64,000 bases of DNA from Escherichia virus TH54. Made by a program: the position numbers and the translations under genes. Below are positions 3,576-45,110 of the stretch, in pieces; position 1 is the first letter of the stretch, and each line of letters opens with the position of its first letter. The stretch lies in sequence record MT446420.1; one strand, given 5' to 3'. A model generated the notes under the pieces. It had not been told where the DNA came from. It ran no database searches and saw only the letters and a program-made list of their open reading frames with translations.

Positions 3576-4896
3576 AATATGCGTCGTACCTCGCTCGTGT
3601 GATTCCTACATAAGCCAACTGGCTCGCTAATGAAGCTTCGGCCATATGGATGCATGGAGTATAGATGAATGCTTTGTCCACTGAAACGCCCTGTGCCTTA
3701 TGGATTGTACTGACCGGAAGAGCACGAACTTTCAAGAAGGTCCTGCGCGCTTTCCAGAAGTCTTTCCACTCTGGACGTTTACCAGCGGCTTTCATCTGTT
3801 TGTATGTGTCAGCAACTTTCGCCAGATATGCCTGGAATTTTGGTTGCTGGTCTTCTGGTAAAACTTTAATGCGGTCAACCTGATATTCTTCATCTTCATC
3901 AATTGACTCAACTTCCAGGTCCCAGTAATTAATCACTAACTGGTGCGATTCACCTTTACAACGGAGAATGGTGGAAGTGTATTTGCAATCCTTGATGCGA
4001 ACCAACTGACCATTATTAAAAATAATTTCGCTGAATTTCTTTCCTTCAAATTCCAGCTCTTTCATGTGCGGCTCTTGCATAACCAGGACTTCATACAGTA
4101 AAAATGCTTTATCCGTTTCATATAGCTTGCGACGAATAATATTATTCAGTTTTTCAACTGATTTATTCGTGTACGCATACATCCTGTTTTCCATCAGCAT
4201 ATCAGCATCTTTTACAATACTGAAATAGTTTATCATGAAATCCTTTAAAGCGGTTTGTGAGGTGAAACCTTGTACGCCATGACCTTCATACATACAGTCA
4301 CGGAACCAACCCCCATTACGAATTTCTGTCGCCACTTCAATGATAGGAGCATTGCTTCGCATGACCTCAGTCAAATGAATCTGTTTGAACTTAGGATGCG
4401 TAAAGAATGGGCTTATCTTTTGTTGTGTGCTTCCTGGGTCAACTGGCTGCAGCTGGTGCATATCACCAATCCCAAGAATAGTACACCATTCAGGAACAGA
4501 GTTAAGAATAATCTTAAACAGAGACCCGTCATACATACTTGCTTCATCACAAACCAGAACATTGCATTTTGACATGTCAGGCATTTCGCGCTGTTCAAAA
4601 ACGTTTTGGTCTTCATACGTAGTCGGGTTAATCTTTAGGATACTATGGATTGTATTCGCTGTTTGACCAGACAATTTAGATAAAACTTTTTTCGCCTGGT
4701 GAGTTGGTGCAGCGAGCACAATTCCCATAACTCCATTTCGCACCAGATGGTCAATGACAAATTTTGTCAGAGTAGTCTTACCTGTGCCAGCTGGACCATT
4801 CAGAGTGATACATTCCCCTGAACGTCGCTGAATAGCTTCAGTGATATAATCAAAAGCTTCTTTTTGTCCTGTGTTCAAGTCTTCAAATTTAATCAT
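3568..4896 (-). CDS. dda: Dda-like SF1 DNA helicase
   Basis: 442 aa; Walker A GPAGTGKTT; overall resemblance to T4 Dda; synteny. Confidence 0.9.
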   Translation of the reverse strand: MIKFEDLNTGQKEAFDYITEAIQRRSGECITLNGPAGTGKTTLTKFVIDHLVRNGVMGIVLAAPTHQAKKVLSKLSGQTANTIHSILKINPTTYEDQNVFEQREMPDMSKCNVLVCDEASMYDGSLFKIILNSVPEWCTILGIGDMHQLQPVDPGSTQQKISPFFTHPKFKQIHLTEVMRSNAPIIEVATEIRNGGWFRDCMYEGHGVQGFTSQTALKDFMINYFSIVKDADMLMENRMYAYTNKSVEKLNNIIRRKLYETDKAFLLYEVLVMQEPHMKELEFEGKKFSEIIFNNGQLVRIKDCKYTSTILRCKGESHQLVINYWDLEVESIDEDEEYQVDRIKVLPEDQQPKFQAYLAKVADTYKQMKAAGKRPEWKDFWKARRTFLKVRALPVSTIHKAQGVSVDKAFIYTPCIHMAEASLASQLAYVGITRARYDAYYV

Positions 4897-6073: not shown

Positions 6074-6688
6074 TTAGTTCAAAACAGTTAAATGCCAAAC
6101 AGTATACAGGTTATTCAATGGGTGTGTTTCAATCAAGTCTACGCGGAGCGTAGTCCCAGCGGGAAACATAAACTCATCTTCATCATTAACCAGGTGCAAG
6201 TTTGACTTCCTGGTTGCTTCTGGATATGCACCATTGAACTCTTCAGGAGGAGCACCGCAAATCATTTTGAAGATTGCTTCCTGATAGTTATACGCATATG
6301 GTGCATTGTTTATACAGAAAATGTTCCTTGTGCCATAGAAACTGTATGATGCAAAATTTCTTGCAACCTGCCAGTCCCTGGAAAAACTCATTACACGGTT
6401 GAACTCAATTGTCGCACCAACATATCTTAAATCTTCCAGGTATTCCATAGTTTTCTTTGATATACCACGGAACAATGCCGCAGGCGGTGCAGTATTCAGA
6501 TTGTTGCGGATAATCCTGGTTAAGTCTTCTTGAATCAAGTCGGGTTTATTTTCCATACACTGCCAGAGTACTGATTGCTCATTATCTGTATAAAGAGCAT
6601 CAATCTCAGCTTGACATTGGTCACGAAAAGACTCACTAGAAGCGGCAGTGTCAATAATTCCATTCAAAACGTCATCAGTGTACAGCAT
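6074..6688 (-). CDS. modA: ADP-ribosyltransferase (Mod family)
   Basis: R-S-ExE signature (LFRGIS, SFS, EDEFMFP); start trimmed to ATG 6686-6688 because upstream codons translate the promoter leader. Confidence 0.75.
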   Translation of the reverse strand: MLYTDDVLNGIIDTAASSESFRDQCQAEIDALYTDNEQSVLWQCMENKPDLIQEDLTRIIRNNLNTAPPAALFRGISKKTMEYLEDLRYVGATIEFNRVMSFSRDWQVARNFASYSFYGTRNIFCINNAPYAYNYQEAIFKMICGAPPEEFNGAYPEATRKSNLHLVNDEDEFMFPAGTTLRVDLIETHPLNNLYTVWHLTVLN

Positions 6689-10289: not shown

Positions 10290-10373
10290 TATATTTTTCC
10301 TTATCAATTCATGTTGTTTGTATGTTAATTATATCGTATTGGTTTGAAGCATAAATACAAGAAAGGAGGATAT

Positions 10374-10571
10374 ATGCTAAAACTATCTAGTCTAATTCAA
10401 GCCATCAAAGGCAGTCGTAAGCGAACGATTCTGGTCCTTTCGATACTCTGTTTAGTTCTACTCTGGAACTTTATTGTTGCCCCTGTTGCATTGGCACATG
10501 GTGTTATATTGCCAGTCGTCGCACTCGAATCAGTTGTAGATGTTTCACTGGCATTAATCGGCCTTATATAG
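10374..10571 (+). CDS. small hydrophobic membrane protein
   Basis: Plus-strand ORF with AAAGGAGGA Shine-Dalgarno before ATG; two predicted TM segments; lies in the 56-61 gap. Confidence 0.4.
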   Translation: MLKLSSLIQAIKGSRKRTILVLSILCLVLLWNFIVAPVALAHGVILPVVALESVVDVSLALIGLI

Positions 10572-11708: not shown

Positions 11709-11729
11709 AGTTTCCTCATTTCAATGGCC

Positions 11730-11898
11730 CCGAAGGACCATTATACTGTAGGTTTATCGTCTTTATTCTTACGCTTTTTTGATGGGATTTGTTCAGGGCC
11801 TTTATTGACAACTGCTCCGGAAGTGGTACCTGTTGCGATATTAGTTGGGTTTCCACCTGCATCACCGGCAACCATATCTTCGTTGATAAAATCTTTGA
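11730..11898 (-). CDS. small hypothetical protein with internal-protein-like N-terminus
   Basis: Hand translation MKTFKDFINEDMVAGD...; not in track (under 60 aa). Confidence 0.3.
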
Positions 11899-11927
11899 AT
11901 GTTTTCATAACACCCCCTTTCCGCTAT

Positions 11928-12119
11928 TTATACAACGAAGATAGCTTTATCACCATTTGCATCAGTCACTTCATAAGTGTCTTCATGATACAACGGAATA
12001 ATCCAGGTAACACCATCATCAGCGATAACATGGATTGCTTCTTGGTCTTGCGACACGATTTCATATTCTTCAAAAATCTGGAAGACCGAAATCTTAGAGC
12101 CCGTACACATTGCACTCAT
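11928..12119 (-). CDS. hypothetical protein
   Basis: 63 aa acidic ORF. Confidence 0.35.
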   Translation of the reverse strand: MSAMCTGSKISVFQIFEEYEIVSQDQEAIHVIADDGVTWIIPLYHEDTYEVTDANGDKAIFVV

Positions 12120-12315
12120 ATTGTTCCCTTCTTTTAATCAATTGACGATGTGCCTTTTTAAGCTTACGAATCTGACGTTTAGTCGGTCGCGCAACGTAAG
12201 CTTGTGTAGTTACTCGTCCAAAAACACCATACTTAGGCGAAGGAGTATCAATAAAGACTTCCCACTGGCAAGAGTAACTATATATTGCTTTAGAGAATTG
12301 GGTCAAAACAAACAT
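12094..12315 (-). CDS. hypothetical basic protein
   Basis: 73 aa. Confidence 0.35.
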   Translation of the reverse strand: MFVLTQFSKAIYSYSCQWEVFIDTPSPKYGVFGRVTTQAYVARPTKRQIRKLKKAHRQLIKRREQYECNVYGL

Positions 12316-12316
12316 A

Positions 12317-12676
12317 TTAACCTCGCTTCATGAAGGCATTAAAAATCTGGTCATCAATATCAGTAGGCAGTTCTTGAGCTTTAACCCAAGCCCCTTCCAG
12401 AATGTCATTTGCTTCAGTAGATATCATGACCCCAATTTCAGGGTTTCCGGTTATCCATGCTGCACAATCGCGTACATTCTTTTTATCAAATGGATAGCCA
12501 CGAGTATCTTCATAAGGTCCACTCATTACCATAAATGAGCGAGCCTTTATGATAACATCATCTTTAACGATAATATAACCAATCGCCTGATTAAACCGAG
12601 GCTCACGAAATTCATAACGGGCATTACCATTATTATTGCTCACCAGTTCAAAATTCAGAAAATTATAATAACTCAT
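12317..12676 (-). CDS. hypothetical protein, paralog pair member (C-terminal DDQIFNAFMKR)
   Basis: 119 aa; last 11 aa and the underlying DNA nearly identical to the next gene. Confidence 0.5.
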   Translation of the reverse strand: MSYYNFLNFELVSNNNGNARYEFREPRFNQAIGYIIVKDDVIIKARSFMVMSGPYEDTRGYPFDKKNVRDCAAWITGNPEIGVMISTEANDILEGAWVKAQELPTDIDDQIFNAFMKRG

Positions 12677-18627: not shown

Positions 18628-18870
18628 TCATTTGGTTTCCTTGATGATAATTACTTGTGCGTTTGATTTACGCTCAGCAACGAGTGCCCAGATAAATGCA
18701 ATAAACCATCCGACCATTGTCCAACCTAACAGGAGGTTAACAAAGAAGATTCCGCAATTACTTTTGGTTCCTCGCAGTAGTGCGATAATCCACGGCAGAA
18801 AATATGCCAGTGCAGCCAGGAAGAAAGAGCCAGCACCCAGAACAACAGTACCCGCAATTAATGTTTCCAT
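18628..18870 (-). CDS. imm: Imm-like membrane protein
   Basis: 80 aa, two TM helices, immediately before gene 43 as in T4. Confidence 0.65.
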   Translation of the reverse strand: METLIAGTVVLGAGSFFLAALAYFLPWIIALLRGTKSNCGIFFVNLLLGWTMVGWFIAFIWALVAERKSNAQVIIIKETK

Positions 18871-18907
18871 TTTAATATCCTTAAGTTATTCATCAGTTGA
18901 TGGAGTA

Positions 18908-18937
18908 ATCATACGGCAGTCCTTTGCCGTTGTAAAC
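18908..18937 (-). promoter_or_regulatory. early-type sigma70 promoter
   Basis: Reverse complement GTTTACA-N16-GTATGAT; overlaps the 3' end of gene 43. Confidence 0.45.
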
Positions 18938-18939
18938 AC

Positions 18940-21654
18940 TTAAAAGTCAAACATATCAAAAAGAGATGCTTTTTTCTCGTAATCAACCTTAGCTGCTTCA
19001 GAGAACCCTGTCAATGGCTTAACAAAAGTCTTCTGGAACAGTGTGTTGTAGTCCATCCACTGCAAGACTTGGTCACGAATTTCAATCGGGAGTTCAATCC
19101 CTGATGGCCACGCAATCACGGTTTCGCCAAACGGGTTACCAACTTTAAGAGGAAGCACATACACCTTTTCCCCTTCCATGATTTGTGGAACAGTCTTCAG
19201 CCCTTTGGTTGCACGCATGTAAGCAAGCACGCCTTTGATATGAGCCGGACACTTAAATCCAGGGAAACCACCCTCATTATATTTCTGGATGTTGTTAACC
19301 GATGATACACCTGCGATGGTCATGTAATTAAGCTCATTAAATTCCTTGTTGAATTCCTTGAAGTACGTCTGCAGAGATTCTTCACCTTCTTGCAACATAC
19401 GGCGGATACATTCTTTCAGAGCTTTCTGACATGCTTTTGGTGTGCTCGACTTTTGAGTTTCCAGACCCATGATTTTCAGTTTCGGAACAGCATATCGTGT
19501 GCCTTCCATATCGTACACGTTCAGAGCATAACGCTTCTTCGCCGTCCAGAATCCACCAACACCTTTAGAACCAAGTGGAGGACATGCAATCGCTTCACGG
19601 TCCATAAACATAAGGTGCTGTTTGTTGTTCATGTATTCAGCTAGTTCACGGAAAGCTTTATCGATTGCCGGTTCCAAACGGTCTTTCGCGAACTTGTCCA
19701 TGAAGTCAACCAGGTGGTTTGTATCGCGGAATTTAGATTCGCCACCAACCTTTTTAATCAGGTTATCGCACTGGATATAAATGGAGTCAGTATCGCCATA
19801 GAATACATATGTTTCACCACTTGTACCACAAACACTATCAAAATATTCGTTAACTTTACGCTCAATCCACTGCAATGCAAGTTGCCCGAAAGATGTAATC
19901 GCGGTTGCATTTCGCAGGTCAAAGTAACGGAACCAGATATTACCCAGAGCACCATAACAACTGTTGATAAGCAGTTTACGGTTAATCTGTGCGGTCATGC
20001 CTGCGACTTCTTCCATCTGCGCTTTGTACAACATACCATTCAGAACTGTTTGATTCAGACCGTGCAAGGTTGTTTTCATATTGTCATCGAAGTCATAACG
20101 ATAATCAACTTCAGGCTCGGTTGTACCAGTTCCTGGATTACGCAGGGCTTCCTTAATCAGTTCACCATTACGTTGAGCCGCAAGCATATAACCTTTGTGC
20201 TCTTTACGCTGATTAAACACCTTGGTGACTTCTGTTGGAATAATACCCGCAACATCTTTAAAATACATCATACCGTTTGGAGCACAACTAAATGTATCAG
20301 ATGGACGGTCAGCAGTTCCTGCAATGTATTCATACATCGGCGCTGGTGCAAATGACCCGGCAATCGTTTCTGGACTGATGTTAATCTGTCGGATGATGCT
20401 CGGATACAGAGATGTTAAGTCACAGCTCATAACGTATTTGTATGCGTTCGGAATAGGTTCCTTAACAAATGCACCTGGGAACGATTGACGAACATGCGAT
20501 TTGGTTTCCGGAATGACTTTGTTTTGAGTCTTCAGGCTGTTAAAGATAATCGCATCCCAAGTTTTGATTGGGCTGAATACAGACTGAATCTGCATTTTTG
20601 CGTAATAACCCATTGACTGGCTAAGGTTAATAAACTGGCGCTTACGGTCAATCTGTACAACACGATAAACATCGATGATGTTATAAGAAATATACCGTTG
20701 GTGATTTGATTCACGCAGTTTAGAAATCGGACCATCATATGGGAGTTTACCAACACCCAGCTCAGATTCCGCAACATAATCCAACGAATAAGATGGCTGG
20801 TTTGTGAAGCTGAACTTTTTATACAGGTCCAGATAATCCAGAACAGAGATACCCAGAATCTGAATGATTTCTTGTTCTTCACCGAATCCGTTGTTAATGA
20901 CCTTAACTTTTGTACGACGATGTGGACTCAGACGTTTTGCTGTAGCTTCACCAAACACATTTTTAAGGCGGTTGTAGATATATGGAATATCAAACTTCTC
21001 GATGTTCCAACCAGTTAACATAACCGGAGTTTTCTCGTTCCAGAATACCAAATACTGCTGGAGCATTTCTTCTTCTGAATCGAAAGCCATATAAACAATT
21101 TTTTCCAGGATTTCTTCAGGGACTTCATCGCCGCCATCTTCTTGCAGCTTAGCAGCAATATCGATAGACCATTGCTCCACAGTGGCGTATGGTGAGCTCA
21201 AAAGGTCAAAGACATAGAATTTATCGTCTACCGAATCATAGTGCGTCAGGGCATCAATAGGGTGACGTGCTTCAGACGGCTCAGGGAACCCATCAGGAGA
21301 TGTCACCTCGATATCGAAGTTAGCCACACGGATTTTACTTGAATCGTATTTGATTTCGTGCGGGTAACGGTCGGACAAGTATGCGAGTTTAAAGTCATCC
21401 ATACCCATAGCTTCGAGACCCATGTCATTCATTCGCTTCATCCACTGGGATGCATCACGCATGGAGTCGAATTCTTTTTTCACACAACCTTTATTATAGA
21501 TGTCTGTATACTTTGCAGCCTGGTCTTCGCGGGCATGCATAAACAAGCATGGAGCATAAGGGATTTCACGAACACGTTCATGACCGTTCTTGTCAATGTA
21601 TCGTTCGAGTAGATTGTCACCGATTTGTTCGATAGTTAAATAAAATTCTTGCAT
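18940..21654 (-). CDS. 43: family B DNA polymerase
   Basis: 904 aa; exonuclease motifs and polymerase motif YGDTDS; collinear resemblance to T4 gp43. Confidence 0.95.
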   Translation of the reverse strand: MQEFYLTIEQIGDNLLERYIDKNGHERVREIPYAPCLFMHAREDQAAKYTDIYNKGCVKKEFDSMRDASQWMKRMNDMGLEAMGMDDFKLAYLSDRYPHEIKYDSSKIRVANFDIEVTSPDGFPEPSEARHPIDALTHYDSVDDKFYVFDLLSSPYATVEQWSIDIAAKLQEDGGDEVPEEILEKIVYMAFDSEEEMLQQYLVFWNEKTPVMLTGWNIEKFDIPYIYNRLKNVFGEATAKRLSPHRRTKVKVINNGFGEEQEIIQILGISVLDYLDLYKKFSFTNQPSYSLDYVAESELGVGKLPYDGPISKLRESNHQRYISYNIIDVYRVVQIDRKRQFINLSQSMGYYAKMQIQSVFSPIKTWDAIIFNSLKTQNKVIPETKSHVRQSFPGAFVKEPIPNAYKYVMSCDLTSLYPSIIRQINISPETIAGSFAPAPMYEYIAGTADRPSDTFSCAPNGMMYFKDVAGIIPTEVTKVFNQRKEHKGYMLAAQRNGELIKEALRNPGTGTTEPEVDYRYDFDDNMKTTLHGLNQTVLNGMLYKAQMEEVAGMTAQINRKLLINSCYGALGNIWFRYFDLRNATAITSFGQLALQWIERKVNEYFDSVCGTSGETYVFYGDTDSIYIQCDNLIKKVGGESKFRDTNHLVDFMDKFAKDRLEPAIDKAFRELAEYMNNKQHLMFMDREAIACPPLGSKGVGGFWTAKKRYALNVYDMEGTRYAVPKLKIMGLETQKSSTPKACQKALKECIRRMLQEGEESLQTYFKEFNKEFNELNYMTIAGVSSVNNIQKYNEGGFPGFKCPAHIKGVLAYMRATKGLKTVPQIMEGEKVYVLPLKVGNPFGETVIAWPSGIELPIEIRDQVLQWMDYNTLFQKTFVKPLTGFSEAAKVDYEKKASLFDMFDF

Positions 21655-28660: not shown

Positions 28661-29089
28661 TTTCCAATTAATACACCATACAGAGGTTCGCGATTAGACT
28701 TGAACTTGATTTTCTTATGGGTAATAGTACCTTCATTTTCTGCTTTAATACGAGCGGCTTCAAATTGAAGTATCATCTCATTTTTGCCAGATTTAATCTT
28801 ATCAAAATCCATCGAATTCGTCATTCATATGACCTCTTAAACTTTTTCGTATTCGTCATTCATAAGCTTAAAAATCCGGGTGTTCGTCTTCAAAGCAACC
28901 GATATTCATCGCTGCCACCACTTCTTAAGTTGATGAGAATCGACCCAAACCTTGGCCACAGGCTCAATCTGAAAAATACCATCAGAATACTGACCAACCA
29001 TTTTATATTCGGTTTCGGTCTGCTTGATACAGATATTACCGTATGAGCGAAGTCTGAAAGCGGCTCCAACAAGAAGCCGTTTAAAAGGT

Positions 29090-42501: not shown

Positions 42502-42804
42502 TTAATTAAAAGTTCTTTCAGTATTTTCACCGCTGAACCAGACGCTCTTAACGGCTTGCTGGGCGCGATGGAGCTGCTCTGCCATATAAACACCAAGGGC
42601 CTCAGCTTTACGTGTCCTGTGAGCTTCTGCGGCGACCATTTGCAGCTTATCCATCATGATAAGAGCTTTGCATTTCTCCTTCAGAGCATATCGCTTCTTC
42701 TCTTCTGGAGTTTTGACCATTCCTCTTAACTTGTGCATTTTCAACTTAAAATGGTCAGCAGATTTCAGACATGCATCAATCATGTCAATTTCATACTTTT
42801 TCAT
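42502..42804 (-). CDS. hypothetical protein
   Basis: 100 aa basic helical. Confidence 0.45.
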   Translation of the reverse strand: MKKYEIDMIDACLKSADHFKLKMHKLRGMVKTPEEKKRYALKEKCKALIMMDKLQMVAAEAHRTRKAEALGVYMAEQLHRAQQAVKSVWFSGENTERTFN

Positions 42805-42810
42805 AATTCC

Positions 42811-43017
42811 TCACTTGCGACGACGTTTTGGTAATGGTTTAGGGAAGAACATTGCTTTACCTGCAGGGGTCAAAGTCACACGTAAAGCATTACCAATACC
42901 AAGGGATGCTTTAACCAGACCTTTGGCTTTTAACTCACCAAATGCTTGACGTTGTTCAGGGTCACGAGTGTTAACCATCAGACCTTTTTCACCAGCAGCT
43001 TTGATTAATTCTAACAT
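42811..43017 (-). CDS. small basic protein
   Basis: 68 aa with C-terminal KRRRK. Confidence 0.45.
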   Translation of the reverse strand: MLELIKAAGEKGLMVNTRDPEQRQAFGELKAKGLVKASLGIGNALRVTLTPAGKAMFFPKPLPKRRRK

Positions 43018-43055
43018 TTTATTCTCCGTTTGTTTATTTGGTAACTCAGTATGGA

Positions 43056-43088
43056 ATCATTATGCATCATGACCATCTGGTTGTACAC
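43056..43088 (-). promoter_or_regulatory. early-type sigma70 promoter with CCATACTGAGTTACC leader
   Basis: Reverse complement GTGTACA-N17-GCATAATGAT. Confidence 0.5.
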
Positions 43089-43134
43089 ATATACTAAATA
43101 AAAATACTTAATAAAACCATAAAGGAGAAAGTTT

Positions 43135-43881
43135 ATGATTTTATCCGGAAGAACTGTTGATGAACTCAATGAAAAAGTCCAGGCTGCCTTGGCTAATAAT
43201 TGGTATTTGTTTGGTTCGACTATGGTGTTGCCGAATACCCCTACGGATAGCAAAGAGCGTTTTTTCCAAACTATGTCCAGCTCGGAAACTCAGATACCGG
43301 GTCCACCTGGTCCCAAAGGAGAACCGGGTGTACCAGGACCAAAAGGAGACCCAGGTGGGGATGGAAAATCTTCTTATCAGATATGGCTTGACTTGGGAAA
43401 TACAGGAACTGTTGATGATTTTTTAACTGATACAGCAGGAAAGAGGGAAAAATCCGAGGTGTTTTGGAGTGGTATAAACGTTCTATTAACCAATGGTGTG
43501 ACTTCAAACATAATTAGTGTTTTAAAGGGGATTCCACCGACTGCAGGGACTCTATCTCCGTTTTTTAGAACCACTGATGATAAGTTGTGGCCATATAACC
43601 AAGACAGAAGCCTAATGTTTAAACTCAACCTTATTGGTAATTTTGCAGGAGCCTCGCAAGCTCGAAGTATAACATTAAATTTCGTTGGAACCAACGGAAA
43701 CACTTATATACAGAATCGTCCGGAAAATGCTACAGATATTTTGTCTTTTACAACGTTCTTTAGCATTGATAAAGATGGGGCAATGGCAACCAATGGTACA
43801 GCTATAACTGTTATGCCAAATGGCGGCAACTTTACAATAACCTCTGCATTGTTAGTAGCCGAACAAACAGTGACTTCATAA
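43135..43881 (+). CDS. collagen-repeat, tail-fibre-like protein
   Basis: Plus strand; AAAGGAGAAAG Shine-Dalgarno; eight G-X-Y triplets (GPPGPKGEPGVPGPKGDPGGDG) followed by SSYQIWLDLGNTGT. Confidence 0.6.
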   Translation: MILSGRTVDELNEKVQAALANNWYLFGSTMVLPNTPTDSKERFFQTMSSSETQIPGPPGPKGEPGVPGPKGDPGGDGKSSYQIWLDLGNTGTVDDFLTDTAGKREKSEVFWSGINVLLTNGVTSNIISVLKGIPPTAGTLSPFFRTTDDKLWPYNQDRSLMFKLNLIGNFAGASQARSITLNFVGTNGNTYIQNRPENATDILSFTTFFSIDKDGAMATNGTAITVMPNGGNFTITSALLVAEQTVTS

Positions 43882-43882
43882 A

Positions 43883-43903
43883 CAAAAAAGGGCCGTATGG
43901 CCC
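43883..43903 (-). terminator. rho-independent terminator ending the nucleotidyltransferase operon
   Basis: GGGCCAUACGGCCC followed by UUUUUUGU on the minus-strand RNA, directly after the stop of 43904..44128. Confidence 0.6.
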
Positions 43904-44128
43904 TTAGATTGCACTCCAAAAATTATGGAATCTTATAGTATTGATAGCCCAGTTAACAAACCTGCGAGTTTGCTTGGGAGTTGGTTTGCATATGTACTTG
44001 ATATTGACCCGACGACCAGTTTCACGACAGACTGCTTCGAGATACCAGCGGCGACCTTTATGAGGTCTTCCATACGATAAGAAGACCTTGATTTCCTGGT
44101 TATCGATAATAGGAATTGTGGTTGTCAA
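43904..44128 (-). CDS. small basic protein (probable TTG start)
   Basis: GAGGAGG, 6 nt, then TTG; Arg/Lys-rich; track ORF extends to 44146. Confidence 0.4.
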   Translation of the reverse strand: MTTTIPIIDNQEIKVFLSYGRPHKGRRWYLEAVCRETGRRVNIKYICKPTPKQTRRFVNWAINTIRFHNFWSAI

Positions 44129-45110
44129 GATATACCTCCTCAACAAACTTGTCCCAGAACTTCATGTCCACCTTCGCAGGCATACCATTCTTAGCAGCCC
44201 AGATGGCATTAGTTTCGACTTCATCAACGATAGCTTCAAGTTCAGCCTGTACATCTTTAAAAGCATGTAACCCTTGTTTGATTTCAAGGATAAACGGTGC
44301 TGTTCGTAAAGGATATTGAAGGTCACCGGTCATATAAATTTCCTTCAGCTGATATCCAGCTCGATAAGCATGACTCAATGCTTTCCAGTCAATACCTTCA
44401 TTCGCTTCGGCCTTACGAGCACGTTCACCATATTCGGCATCAAGTTTATTCAGAGATTGCTTGAGCTCGATTAAAGACAGAGTAGTTTGGTATTTACGAC
44501 CGAGGACAGTATAGAACGTTTGAGGACCTGTTTTCTCATGGTTATGAAATACCCATTCACAGAACTCGTTTTCAGGGAGCCGGTGCTTAATATCTTCTAC
44601 CTTAGTACGTCGTTGCTTAGTAGAACCATCTTCTTGATAATCGACCCATTGTTCAGGAATCTGGTTAACGATTTCCAATACACCACGCAGTGCAGCCAAT
44701 CGAGAACCTTTAACACCATATTTGGAAGCTTGCTTGCGGACATACCCCAAATAGGCTTTCATGTTGGTTGTATAGAACCGCGAACGGTTATCCTGAATAA
44801 ACTTCCATACATCTGGTAAATCGGATTTGACAACCAGGTCAGCCGGCGTGTGAATCATGTCCAGAGCAACGGTTTCGCCTTCGGCCGCCAGTTTAAAGAA
44901 ATATTTCAGACTATAAAGTTCATGGTCAACATCATCTTTTGTATTTTTGGTAGCCGTGTTATTCGTGTTCAGGTTGGTATGGTTCATCGCCGTCCCAAGT
45001 AGAATATCACGAGGATGTGGAACAAAGATTTCTTTAAAATCGACATCAGATTCTGGGGTACTTGTTCCATAAAGGTGGCTACCGAAGTAGCCTTTCATAA
45101 TAGTTTTCAT
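44100..45110 (-). CDS. Pol-beta-superfamily nucleotidyltransferase-domain protein
   Basis: Start trimmed to ATG after GAGGACAAAGA; N-terminal GSHLYGTSTPESDVDF fits the GS...DxD nucleotidyltransferase signature; ATGA overlap with the upstream gene. Confidence 0.55.
   Translation of the reverse strand: MKTIMKGYFGSHLYGTSTPESDVDFKEIFVPHPRDILLGTAMNHTNLNTNNTATKNTKDDVDHELYSLKYFFKLAAEGETVALDMIHTPADLVVKSDLPDVWKFIQDNRSRFYTTNMKAYLGYVRKQASKYGVKGSRLAALRGVLEIVNQIPEQWVDYQEDGSTKQRRTKVEDIKHRLPENEFCEWVFHNHEKTGPQTFYTVLGRKYQTTLSLIELKQSLNKLDAEYGERARKAEANEGIDWKALSHAYRAGYQLKEIYMTGDLQYPLRTAPFILEIKQGLHAFKDVQAELEAIVDEVETNAIWAAKNGMPAKVDMKFWDKFVEEVYLDNHNSYYR

Follow-up and report, generated by a model that had tools for sequence, protein, structure and literature searches.

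A gene opposed to the early block of Escherichia virus TH54 encodes a collagen-stalked protein with an Sf6-type knob, possibly a late-made fibre of the phage head

What is a gene for a collagen-containing protein doing, in opposite orientation, among the early genes of a T4-like phage, when is it expressed and where does its product act? The locus lies in a stretch of 64,000 nucleotides of Escherichia virus TH54 (sequence record MT446420.1), hereafter the window. The window is a classical T4 early region, with motB, dda, the DNA polymerase gene, and nrdC to tk and vs, all leftward. The gene in question, hereafter the knob gene, is on the plus strand, between the nrdC.9-side genes and nrdC.11. 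Analysis of its product revealed a C-terminal knob homologous to that of the Sf6 tail needle, a short collagen-like stalk and an N-terminal part that looks like a distant DUF1737-type module. At somewhat less than even chances, we propose that the protein is a late-made, dispensable, head-anchored virion fibre that serves as an accessory adhesin or sensor.

The initial annotation had described a plus-strand gene of 248 codons with a strong Shine-Dalgarno sequence, and both the reading frame and the AAGGAG element ahead of it were confirmed (Table 1). The open reading frame (ORF) is a real gene under purifying selection. Compared with the copies in phages vB_EcoM_RZ (hereafter RZ) and C6, the ratio of nonsynonymous to synonymous substitution rates (dN/dS) is 0.18-0.20, and it is 0.18 against C6 despite substantial divergence (dS 0.55). 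Over the region 42800-44200, Escherichia virus TH40 shows 98.9% identity and seven further records 97-98%; the seven represent six T4-like phages: ECML-359, pEC-M719-6WT.2, Yersinia phage vB_YenM_P8, DK-13, RZ (two records) and EAWsc9. RZ is classified in Straboviridae, Tevenvirinae, Gaprivervirus. The gene product matches PHROG 1030 ("tail needle knob", filed under 'tail') with E=3e-67. Weak matches to 'tail fibre' PHROGs cover residues 1-128, mostly the collagen and neck stretch, and do not extend to the knob. No signal peptide was found in the 248-residue product.

As judged from sequence, homology of the C-terminal 148 residues to the Sf6 tail-needle knob is unambiguous. Pfam family PF16532 (Phage_tail_NK) matched residues 99-244 over profile positions 30-175 of 175 with 112.1 bits against a cut-off of 27 (E=2.9e-32). 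A family-profile search of the PDB returned the Sf6 and HS1 knob structures, 3RWN (E=6.8e-47) and 4K6B, at E ~1e-46. BLASTP against full-length Sf6 gp9 gave 41% identity over 145 residues, with the alignment confined to Sf6 residues 139-282. The AF2 model of the knob, with a predicted local distance difference test score (pLDDT) of ~70-90, resembled 3RWN and 4K6B with Foldseek E=7e-16, a template modelling (TM) score of 0.84-0.86 and a root-mean-square deviation of 2.4-3.0 Å. Further Foldseek matches of the model were the central-spike knob of phi812, P5 of PRD1, C1q-like proteins (C1QL), TNF-like lectins, ExsFA and EDA. The comparison with C1q/TNF-like domains that the initial annotation had put forward for checking is thus positive at the level of the fold, with a predicted jelly roll of the TNF/C1q type. 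Residues of the Sf6 L-glutamate site are also kept: in the BLASTP alignment E108, K163, S210 and D212 correspond to Sf6 E146, K200, S248 and D250. In the family alignment the first three are invariant and D212 is nearly so (90% or more). The four L-glutamate-contact residues of Sf6/HS1 are conserved in all non-P22 homologues (Leavitt et al., PMC3741392). By analogy, the knob would form a homotrimer with bound glutamate.

Upstream of the knob, the eight G-X-Y triplets followed by SSYQIWLDLGNTGT, as read in the initial annotation, were found at residues 56-79. The triplet run GPPGPKGEPGVPGPKGDPGGDGKS is uninterrupted and exactly eight units long, it has 8 prolines in 24 residues, and SSYQIWLDLGNTGT comes directly after it. 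Provided that a triple helix forms, the stalk would be ~7 nm long. The Pfam Collagen profile (PF01391) scored 17.9 bits, under its cut-off of 27.2, because the G-X-Y run is short. Within the family it is the stalk that varies, with no triplets in RB43 and Klebsiella phage Kpn BU9 and many more in homologue P0008. The neck that joins stalk and knob contains the motif SSYQIWLDLGNTGTVDDFL, further copies of which, frequently as tandem repeats, are seen in many phage tail-fibre proteins with collagen. Neck-motif matches were obtained at multiple stretches of long fibre proteins, at profile positions ~43-123. Repeated copies are present in P0011, P0012, P0021 and P0125, with three in tandem in P0021.

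The N-terminal 50 residues are conserved across the knob-protein family, and their sequence looks like that of a distant DUF1737-type module. The DUF1737 profile PF08410 was matched by all eight family N-termini searched (8/8), with E-values from 3e-6 to 0.06, that is, sub-threshold to marginal. An hhalign comparison with the N-termini of NanS-p and phi24B gp84 gave a probability of 92.6% and P=4.4e-7 over 30 columns. The template for this comparison was shallow, the search for gp84 relatives having yielded mostly fragmentary E. coli sequences. The aligned elements were strand 1, the helix and strand 2, with the motif G-W/M-x-x-aromatic-G-S. The full-length AF2 model had a mean pLDDT of 60 and was low outside the knob; the N-terminal domain was therefore modelled separately. 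With family-only sequences the model reached pLDDT 78, with predicted strand 2-5, helix 8-20, strand ~24-31, a long loop and strand 43-48, and it matches the small DUF1737 fold of one helix and three antiparallel strands described for phi24B (bioRxiv 10.64898/2026.04.10.717836). When this model was compared by Foldseek with BFVD, the best matches after two family members were small proteins named DUF1737, with TM 0.6-0.78. Named DUF1737 proteins account for seven of the top 40 matches (TM 0.57-0.78).

The BFVD matches also include the N-termini of collagen-like proteins from phages Jk06, Rogue1 and BECP10. The entries are Q45PZ0 (Jk06 JK_26P), K7PMK4 (Rogue1), A0A7T7GU87 (BECP10, named collagen-like) and L7TMG8 (phiJLA23). 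From these model comparisons, a DUF1737-like N-terminus seems to be present in proteins of Jk06, Rogue1 and BECP10. One BFVD relative is labelled 'putative DNA polymerase I', and PHROG 22681 ('DNA polymerase') matched residues 1-75 of the window protein; these DNA polymerase labels are probably mis-annotations. The N-terminal profile searched against a set of PDB sequences that includes no DUF1737 chain gave chance GCN4-like matches only (E ~0.4). A short N-terminal coiled coil was considered and rejected: the helix is terminated by the G-W/M-x-x-aromatic-G-S motif that it has in common with DUF1737, and RB43-type members have a glycine at a core position.

The interest of this domain lies in what it does elsewhere. 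In the esterase gp84 of phi24B, DUF1737 is the capsid-binding part and forms a hexamer in the central pore of the capsid hexon, as seen by cryo-electron microscopy (bioRxiv 10.64898/2026.04.10.717836). The combination of anchor and knob is found in T4-like myophages and in non-T4-like Klebsiella phages. Since the same anchor-plus-knob arrangement occurs on unrelated types of virion, and bona fide DUF1737 on the capsid of phi24B, which has podovirus morphology, we infer that the element shared between them would be the capsid fold and not the tail.

Under the head-anchored reading, three chains would trimerise through the C-terminal Sf6-type knob, and the knob trimer would nucleate the eight-triplet collagen helix of ~7 nm. 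Attachment to the particle would be through the DUF1737-like modules at the N-terminus, whose most likely site, as on phi24B, is the HK97-fold shell of the capsid. The knob would then point away from the particle and serve, weakly and reversibly, as an adhesin or sensor for a target in the cell envelope or the environment, a role functionally comparable to that of T4 Hoc. A gp55-type late promoter a short way upstream would drive rightward transcription, counter to the early genes, up to the hairpin shared with the converging operon. Virion association itself finds precedent in knob-only relatives: Sajous1 gp119 of the Vi01-like phages was found by virion mass spectrometry, and the knob-only homologue of Dickeya phage XF4 is annotated "unknown structural protein".

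The protein could instead be an accessory fibre or tip of the tail or baseplate, making receptor contact or sensing the outer membrane at the tail end. The only homologues whose location is known, those of Sf6 (gp9) and HS1, bear the knob at the tail needle's tip, in Staphylococcus phage phi812 a TNF-like knob tops the central spike, collagen and neck motifs are typical for tail fibres, and the category of PHROG 1030 is 'tail'. However, the similarity to Sf6 gp9 is restricted to the knob, and the plug domain and coiled-coil shaft of P22/Sf6 needles are absent. The N-terminus resembles DUF1737 and not a tail adaptor, and the same N-terminal domain occurs in a siphophage with an unrelated tail. 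In addition, T4-type phages already possess a spike formed by gp5/gp5.4. We regard a tail location as unlikely. The tail-fibre-like character assigned in the initial annotation holds as far as a collagen-stalked fibre of structural or adhesin type is concerned, and fails for the ends of the molecule, the head domain being no tail-fibre tip and the N-terminus being DUF1737-like.

The same domains might also belong to a protein that never enters the particle, namely a soluble trimeric lectin-like factor made late, released at lysis and acting on envelopes, competing phages or the environment. Such a factor would suit a gene that, like this one, has non-structural early genes as neighbours and is remote from the head and tail clusters, and the knob model resembles the TNF-like bacterial lectins PLTL and BC2L-C. 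DUF1737 proteins are mostly small and single-domain, and gp84 loses its catalytic part by cleavage (bioRxiv 10.64898/2026.04.10.717836). On the other hand, the product has no signal peptide, purified Vi01-like virions contain knob-only relatives, and a conserved N-terminal module with a capsid-binding relative is hard to explain on a free protein. A non-virion role therefore seems improbable.

Several observations weigh against a head-anchored fibre. The window N-terminus itself scored 17.6 bits against PF08410 (E=0.0036), below the cut-off of 24, and the hhalign alignment to DUF1737 spans its 30 columns only. The anchor loop of phi24B, with its Tyr42, has no conserved counterpart, the corresponding loop of the knob protein being longer and different. 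DUF1737 is hexameric in phi24B (bioRxiv 10.64898/2026.04.10.717836), whereas the collagen/TNF head is trimeric, and the capsid-binding result comes from one preprint. A literature search found no virion proteomics of T4-like carriers of the knob gene, and support on this side comes from the knob-only proteins of Vi01-like phages. A further point is that RZ also encodes Hoc, of 282 residues (L010 11487-12335).

In T4, Hoc sits at hexon centres, and T4 Hoc, at 376 residues, is longer than that of RZ. Because RZ has Hoc, the binding site of the knob fibre would have to differ from the hexon centre or be shared. In RB43, hoc is annotated as two tiny pieces of 61 and 47 residues (L011 25353-25856). 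The state of Hoc was compared in these two genomes, too few for a correlation with the knob gene.

When would the protein be made? Early and middle transcripts of T4 share one polarity, and only late ones run either way (PMC2988020). The knob gene, on the plus strand within a minus-strand early block, has the polarity that this rule permits only for late transcripts. No sigma-70 early promoter was found by the promoter scan on the plus strand upstream of the knob gene. In C6, AnYang, PEi20 and fHe-Yen9-01 a perfect TATAAATA stands 30-33 nt 5' of the ATG, and RB43 has CATAAATA at the same distance. In the late region of RZ, TATAAATA lies 25-60 nt ahead of genes 19, 20, 22, 24, 26 and 51, among others. 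A point to be set against late expression in TH54, and with it against the proposed fibre, is that a perfect TATAAATA is absent near the knob gene; the window has four such sites in total, all elsewhere. Upstream of the gene there are two overlapping candidates, each with a single mismatch (Table 1). About 50 late promoter sites are known in T4, 32 of them perfect, and variants with a single deviation are in use (PMC2988020). An A at -13 is common in late promoters, and Aeh1 has CTAAATA (PMC1524935). On these sequence comparisons, late expression is well supported for the family and plausible for the window copy.

The missing TATAAATA, which sets this lineage apart from four others, would fit another reading, in which the gene is here a silent or poorly expressed relic whose canonical late promoter was lost and whose ORF persists only because the time since then is short. 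The gene is also lost or replaced in most close relatives, and decayed copies occur elsewhere. All that a word-indexed search with the N-terminal profile returned were copies of the knob gene with truncations, frameshifts or internal deletions (P0016-P0019), and no new architectures. P0019, P0016 and P0018 are metagenomic and assembly proteins: in P0019 the first 29 residues of an RB43-type knob protein are fused to its last 16, with in-frame loss of the middle, and P0016 and P0018 are frameshifted N-terminal fragments. Unless P0016, P0018 and P0019 are assembly errors, the knob gene decays in some genomes. Against a relic in TH54 stand the intact ORF and strong ribosome-binding site in all eight near-identical genomes, the low dN/dS relative to C6 at the divergence given above, and the use of single-deviation late promoters in T4. 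We consider a relic very unlikely.

The knob gene has its slot beside nrdC.11, and its orientation against the early genes, in Gaprivervirus, Dhakavirus, Kanagawavirus and RB43. Full-length homologues share 85% (Dhakavirus C6), 68% (AnYang), 55% (Kanagawavirus PEi20) and 46% (RB43) identity with the window protein. Other slots are also used. In Yersinia phage fHe-Yen9-01 the distance is ~1.2 kb, and the knob gene, on the opposite strand, is flanked by a mobD-region gene and rI; in Kpn BU9 it is directly 3' of the large terminase gene. Copies 96-98% identical to that of Kpn BU9 are present in Carvaje (named vB_KpnS) and VLCpiS10a; these Klebsiella phages have genomes of ~57-60 kb. Both Yersinia enterocolitica T4-like phages, vB_YenM_P8 (PP693301) and fHe-Yen9-01 (KY593455), carry the knob gene, and E. 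coli phage UPEC07, to which P8 is most closely related, is without it, an anecdotal lead to a host-related role.

The whole segment is present in 8 of 45 related Gaprivervirus/Dhakavirus records. Homology to VR7 stops at 43088 and starts again at 43900, with the small leftward ORF099c in between. VR7 (6270-6330, compared with 43080-43110 of the window), which has no knob gene, retains GGTTGTACAC-TACTTTTTAAAATA, a near-copy of C6 GGTTGTAAAC-TACTTTTATAAATA, and the ORF099c terminator follows directly. The C6 sequence GGTTGTAAAC-TACTTTTATAAATA, upstream of C6 locus position 3764, contains the late promoter of C6. Since VR7 thus keeps a relic of the upstream promoter region, VR7 lost or replaced the knob gene. 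The comparison of related genomes suggested in the initial annotation as a search for an insertion has accordingly turned up patchy presence, with the VR7 difference explained by loss or replacement and not by gain.

The view of the gene as a horizontally acquired moron is upheld in one respect and not in the other. The gene is an autonomous unit set between an operon terminator and the next early promoter, it has its own late promoter in relatives, its distribution is patchy, and it occupies other slots. Recent acquisition finds no echo in base composition, the GC content of the gene being 41.1% vs 39.5% for the window and that of third codon positions (0.33) lying within the range of its neighbours; the conserved slot and the VR7 loss also speak against it. 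The knob unit looks like a self-contained cassette, old in this phage family and often lost, and not like a fresh import. From the 8 of 45 records, the replacement in VR7, the damaged copies and the variable stalk, the putative fibre would be dispensable and modular.

The features of the locus are collected in Table 1.

Table 1. Coordinates of the knob gene, the parts of its product and adjacent elements in the window
Feature	Position	Strand	Basis or remark
Knob gene ORF	43135..43881	+	ATG start; TAA stop 43879-43881; 248 residues, 26.6 kDa, pI 4.8
N-terminal domain, residues 1-50	43135..43284	+	Distant DUF1737 (PF08410) relative; proposed capsid anchor
Collagen-like stalk, 8 G-X-Y triplets, residues 56-79	43300..43371	+	Direct reading of GPPGPKGEPGVPGPKGDPGGDGKS
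Neck motif SSYQIWLDLGNTGTVDDFLTDT (SSYQIW type), residues 79-100	43369..43434	+	Profile matches in fibre proteins
Sf6-type knob (PF16532), residues 101-248	43435..43878	+	TNF/C1q-like jelly roll, presumed trimer
Shine-Dalgarno AAGGAG	43122-43127	+	7 nt 5' of knob-gene ATG
Variant T4-late-promoter candidates, overlapping	43093-43100 ACTAAATA; 43099-43106 TAAAAATA	+	Direct reading; single mismatch each
Sigma-70-type early-promoter-like site (TGTACA, 17 nt, CATAAT)	43059..43087	-	Promoter scan; for ORF098c-like gene, then nrdC.9
GC-rich hairpin AAGGGCC-GTAT-GGCCCTT	43888-43905	.	Terminator scan; between convergent genes
Convergent neighbour, VR7ORF100c-like, 80 residues	43904..44146	-	phrog_8921, E=4e-38; family match from residue 8

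The knob gene occupies the space that separates two leftward early operons, with a terminator on its right and an early-promoter-like site on its left. The latter stands back to back with the upstream region of the knob gene. The promoter scan found promoter-like sites to be no commoner than in shuffled sequence, so the function of the 43059..43087 site remains putative. A TGTA(A/C)AC element is conserved ahead of the knob gene in C6, AnYang, PEi20 and fHe-Yen9-01, and in C6 its reverse complement, GTTTACA, would serve as a -35 box.

On the right, the convergent neighbour closes the nrdC.11 (nucleotidyltransferase) operon, with a stop codon directly adjoining the hairpin. Its reading frame shares 47 nt with the 3' end of nrdC.11, and the RZ RefSeq record annotates no coding sequence there. 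The hairpin falls in the interval of the initial annotation, which runs to 43903. The terminator scan scored it on the minus strand only as an intrinsic terminator, with seven pairs and then TTTTTGTTT; on the plus strand it precedes TAGATT, a poor T-run. A hairpin is found directly after the knob-gene stop codon in every homologous locus, with differing stem sequences. By its sequence, the hairpin is a good intrinsic terminator for the nrdC.11 operon on the minus strand, and it probably stops the knob transcript less efficiently. Convergence with the nucleotidyltransferase operon, as initially proposed, is therefore clear from the operon's last gene ending at the hairpin, while its sharing as a terminator is qualified by a score on one strand only.

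The initial count of two supported plus-strand genes in the block agrees with the RZ annotation of the equivalent stretch, in which the knob gene and a small gene near 10.4 kb, at about 10374..10571, are the only plus-strand coding sequences. The second gene, 10344..10571, encodes a small peptide that matches phrog_2024 (E=3e-26) and RZ gp058; since it too runs against the direction of the early block, it may also be late-transcribed. The other plus-strand ORFs tested (11724..12137, 12121..12333, 18632..18943 and 28717..29046) matched no PHROG family. Those within 11724..12333, of 137 and 70 residues, adjoin the primase gene. In RZ a homing endonuclease and small ORFs of the minus strand lie close by, which marks 11724..12333 as a variable patch.

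The family was already known in T4-like phages (Casjens' group, 2013), and several GenBank records name this gene "tail needle knob" or "tail-NK domain-containing protein". What the present analysis adds is the DUF1737-like anchor, the opposite-strand cassette with a late promoter, the evidence of loss in VR7 and the likely mislabelling of location. The label "tail needle knob", which spreads automatically through phage genomes, probably misleads on location, and if the head-decoration reading is true, it is wrong for the whole clade. The Sf6-type knob is well known structurally, its role is unclear even in Sf6, and its T4-like homologues have been without a function since 2013. The DUF1737-like anchor turns this into a concrete prediction of head-borne collagen/TNF fibres on the T4-type capsid. 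A broader proposal, which is speculative and more doubtful, is that several T4-like genera carry a third head decoration beside Hoc and Soc: a C1q-like trimeric fibre with a glutamate-binding knob and a DUF1737-type capsomer anchor exchangeable among myo-, sipho- and podovirus capsids, serving reversible adhesion or sensing. If true, it would represent a portable "anchor, stalk, head" display module with possible use in phage engineering; if the prediction fails, the knob gene would be an ordinary accessory phage gene.

Comparison with known systems places the protein as follows. With the Sf6 gp9/HS1 knob (PF16532; 3RWN, 4K6B) it shares the C-terminal position of the domain, the modelled jelly roll and the glutamate-site residues. 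It differs in having a DUF1737-like domain and a collagen stalk and no P22-type plug or coiled-coil shaft, and two more residues that contact the ligand in Sf6 are changed, L255 to M and K277 to L. The carrier is a T4-like myovirus, and the gene lies in the early region and not among head-completion genes, whereas the Sf6 knob gene sits between homologues of P22 genes 10 and 14. A test for a P22-like needle found no needle-shaft family in the Pfam scan of the knob protein and placed the gene outside the head-completion/ejection genes. As tests for the plug domain, the shaft and the gene context all came out negative, the protein is not a P22-type tail needle.

RB43 ORF128w belongs to the same family, with the 46% identity extending over the full length and the gene on the opposite strand beside nrdC.11; it differs by the absence of collagen triplets. 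Leavitt et al. (2013; PMC3741392) listed ORF128w and other T4-like knob homologues as being of unknown function and did not analyse the N-terminal extension, the promoter or synteny.

With phi24B gp84 and NanS-p the protein would share a one-helix, three-strand N-terminal module with the motif G-W/M-x-x-(Y/F/W)-G-S, a linker and an outward functional domain. The likeness is distant and sub-threshold for the window protein, and the anchor loop, including Tyr42, differs. The cargo is an esterase in gp84 and a collagen/TNF-like trimer here, and phi24B has a T=9 capsid and podovirus morphology in contrast to the prolate head of T4-type phages. The likeness to T4 Hoc is a functional analogy only and extends, under the proposed head-anchored reading, to a dispensable, late-made, weak adhesin displayed on the capsid. 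The two share neither sequence nor fold, Hoc being a monomeric string of Ig-like domains, and Hoc is encoded in the same type of phage. Finally, C1q/adiponectin and Bacillus BclA/ExsFA likewise combine a collagen triple helix with a C-terminal trimer of TNF/C1q fold, and C1QL and ExsFA are among the structural matches of the knob model. At 9-14% identity this is structural likeness only, with no shown descent, and the stalk of the knob protein is much shorter than theirs.

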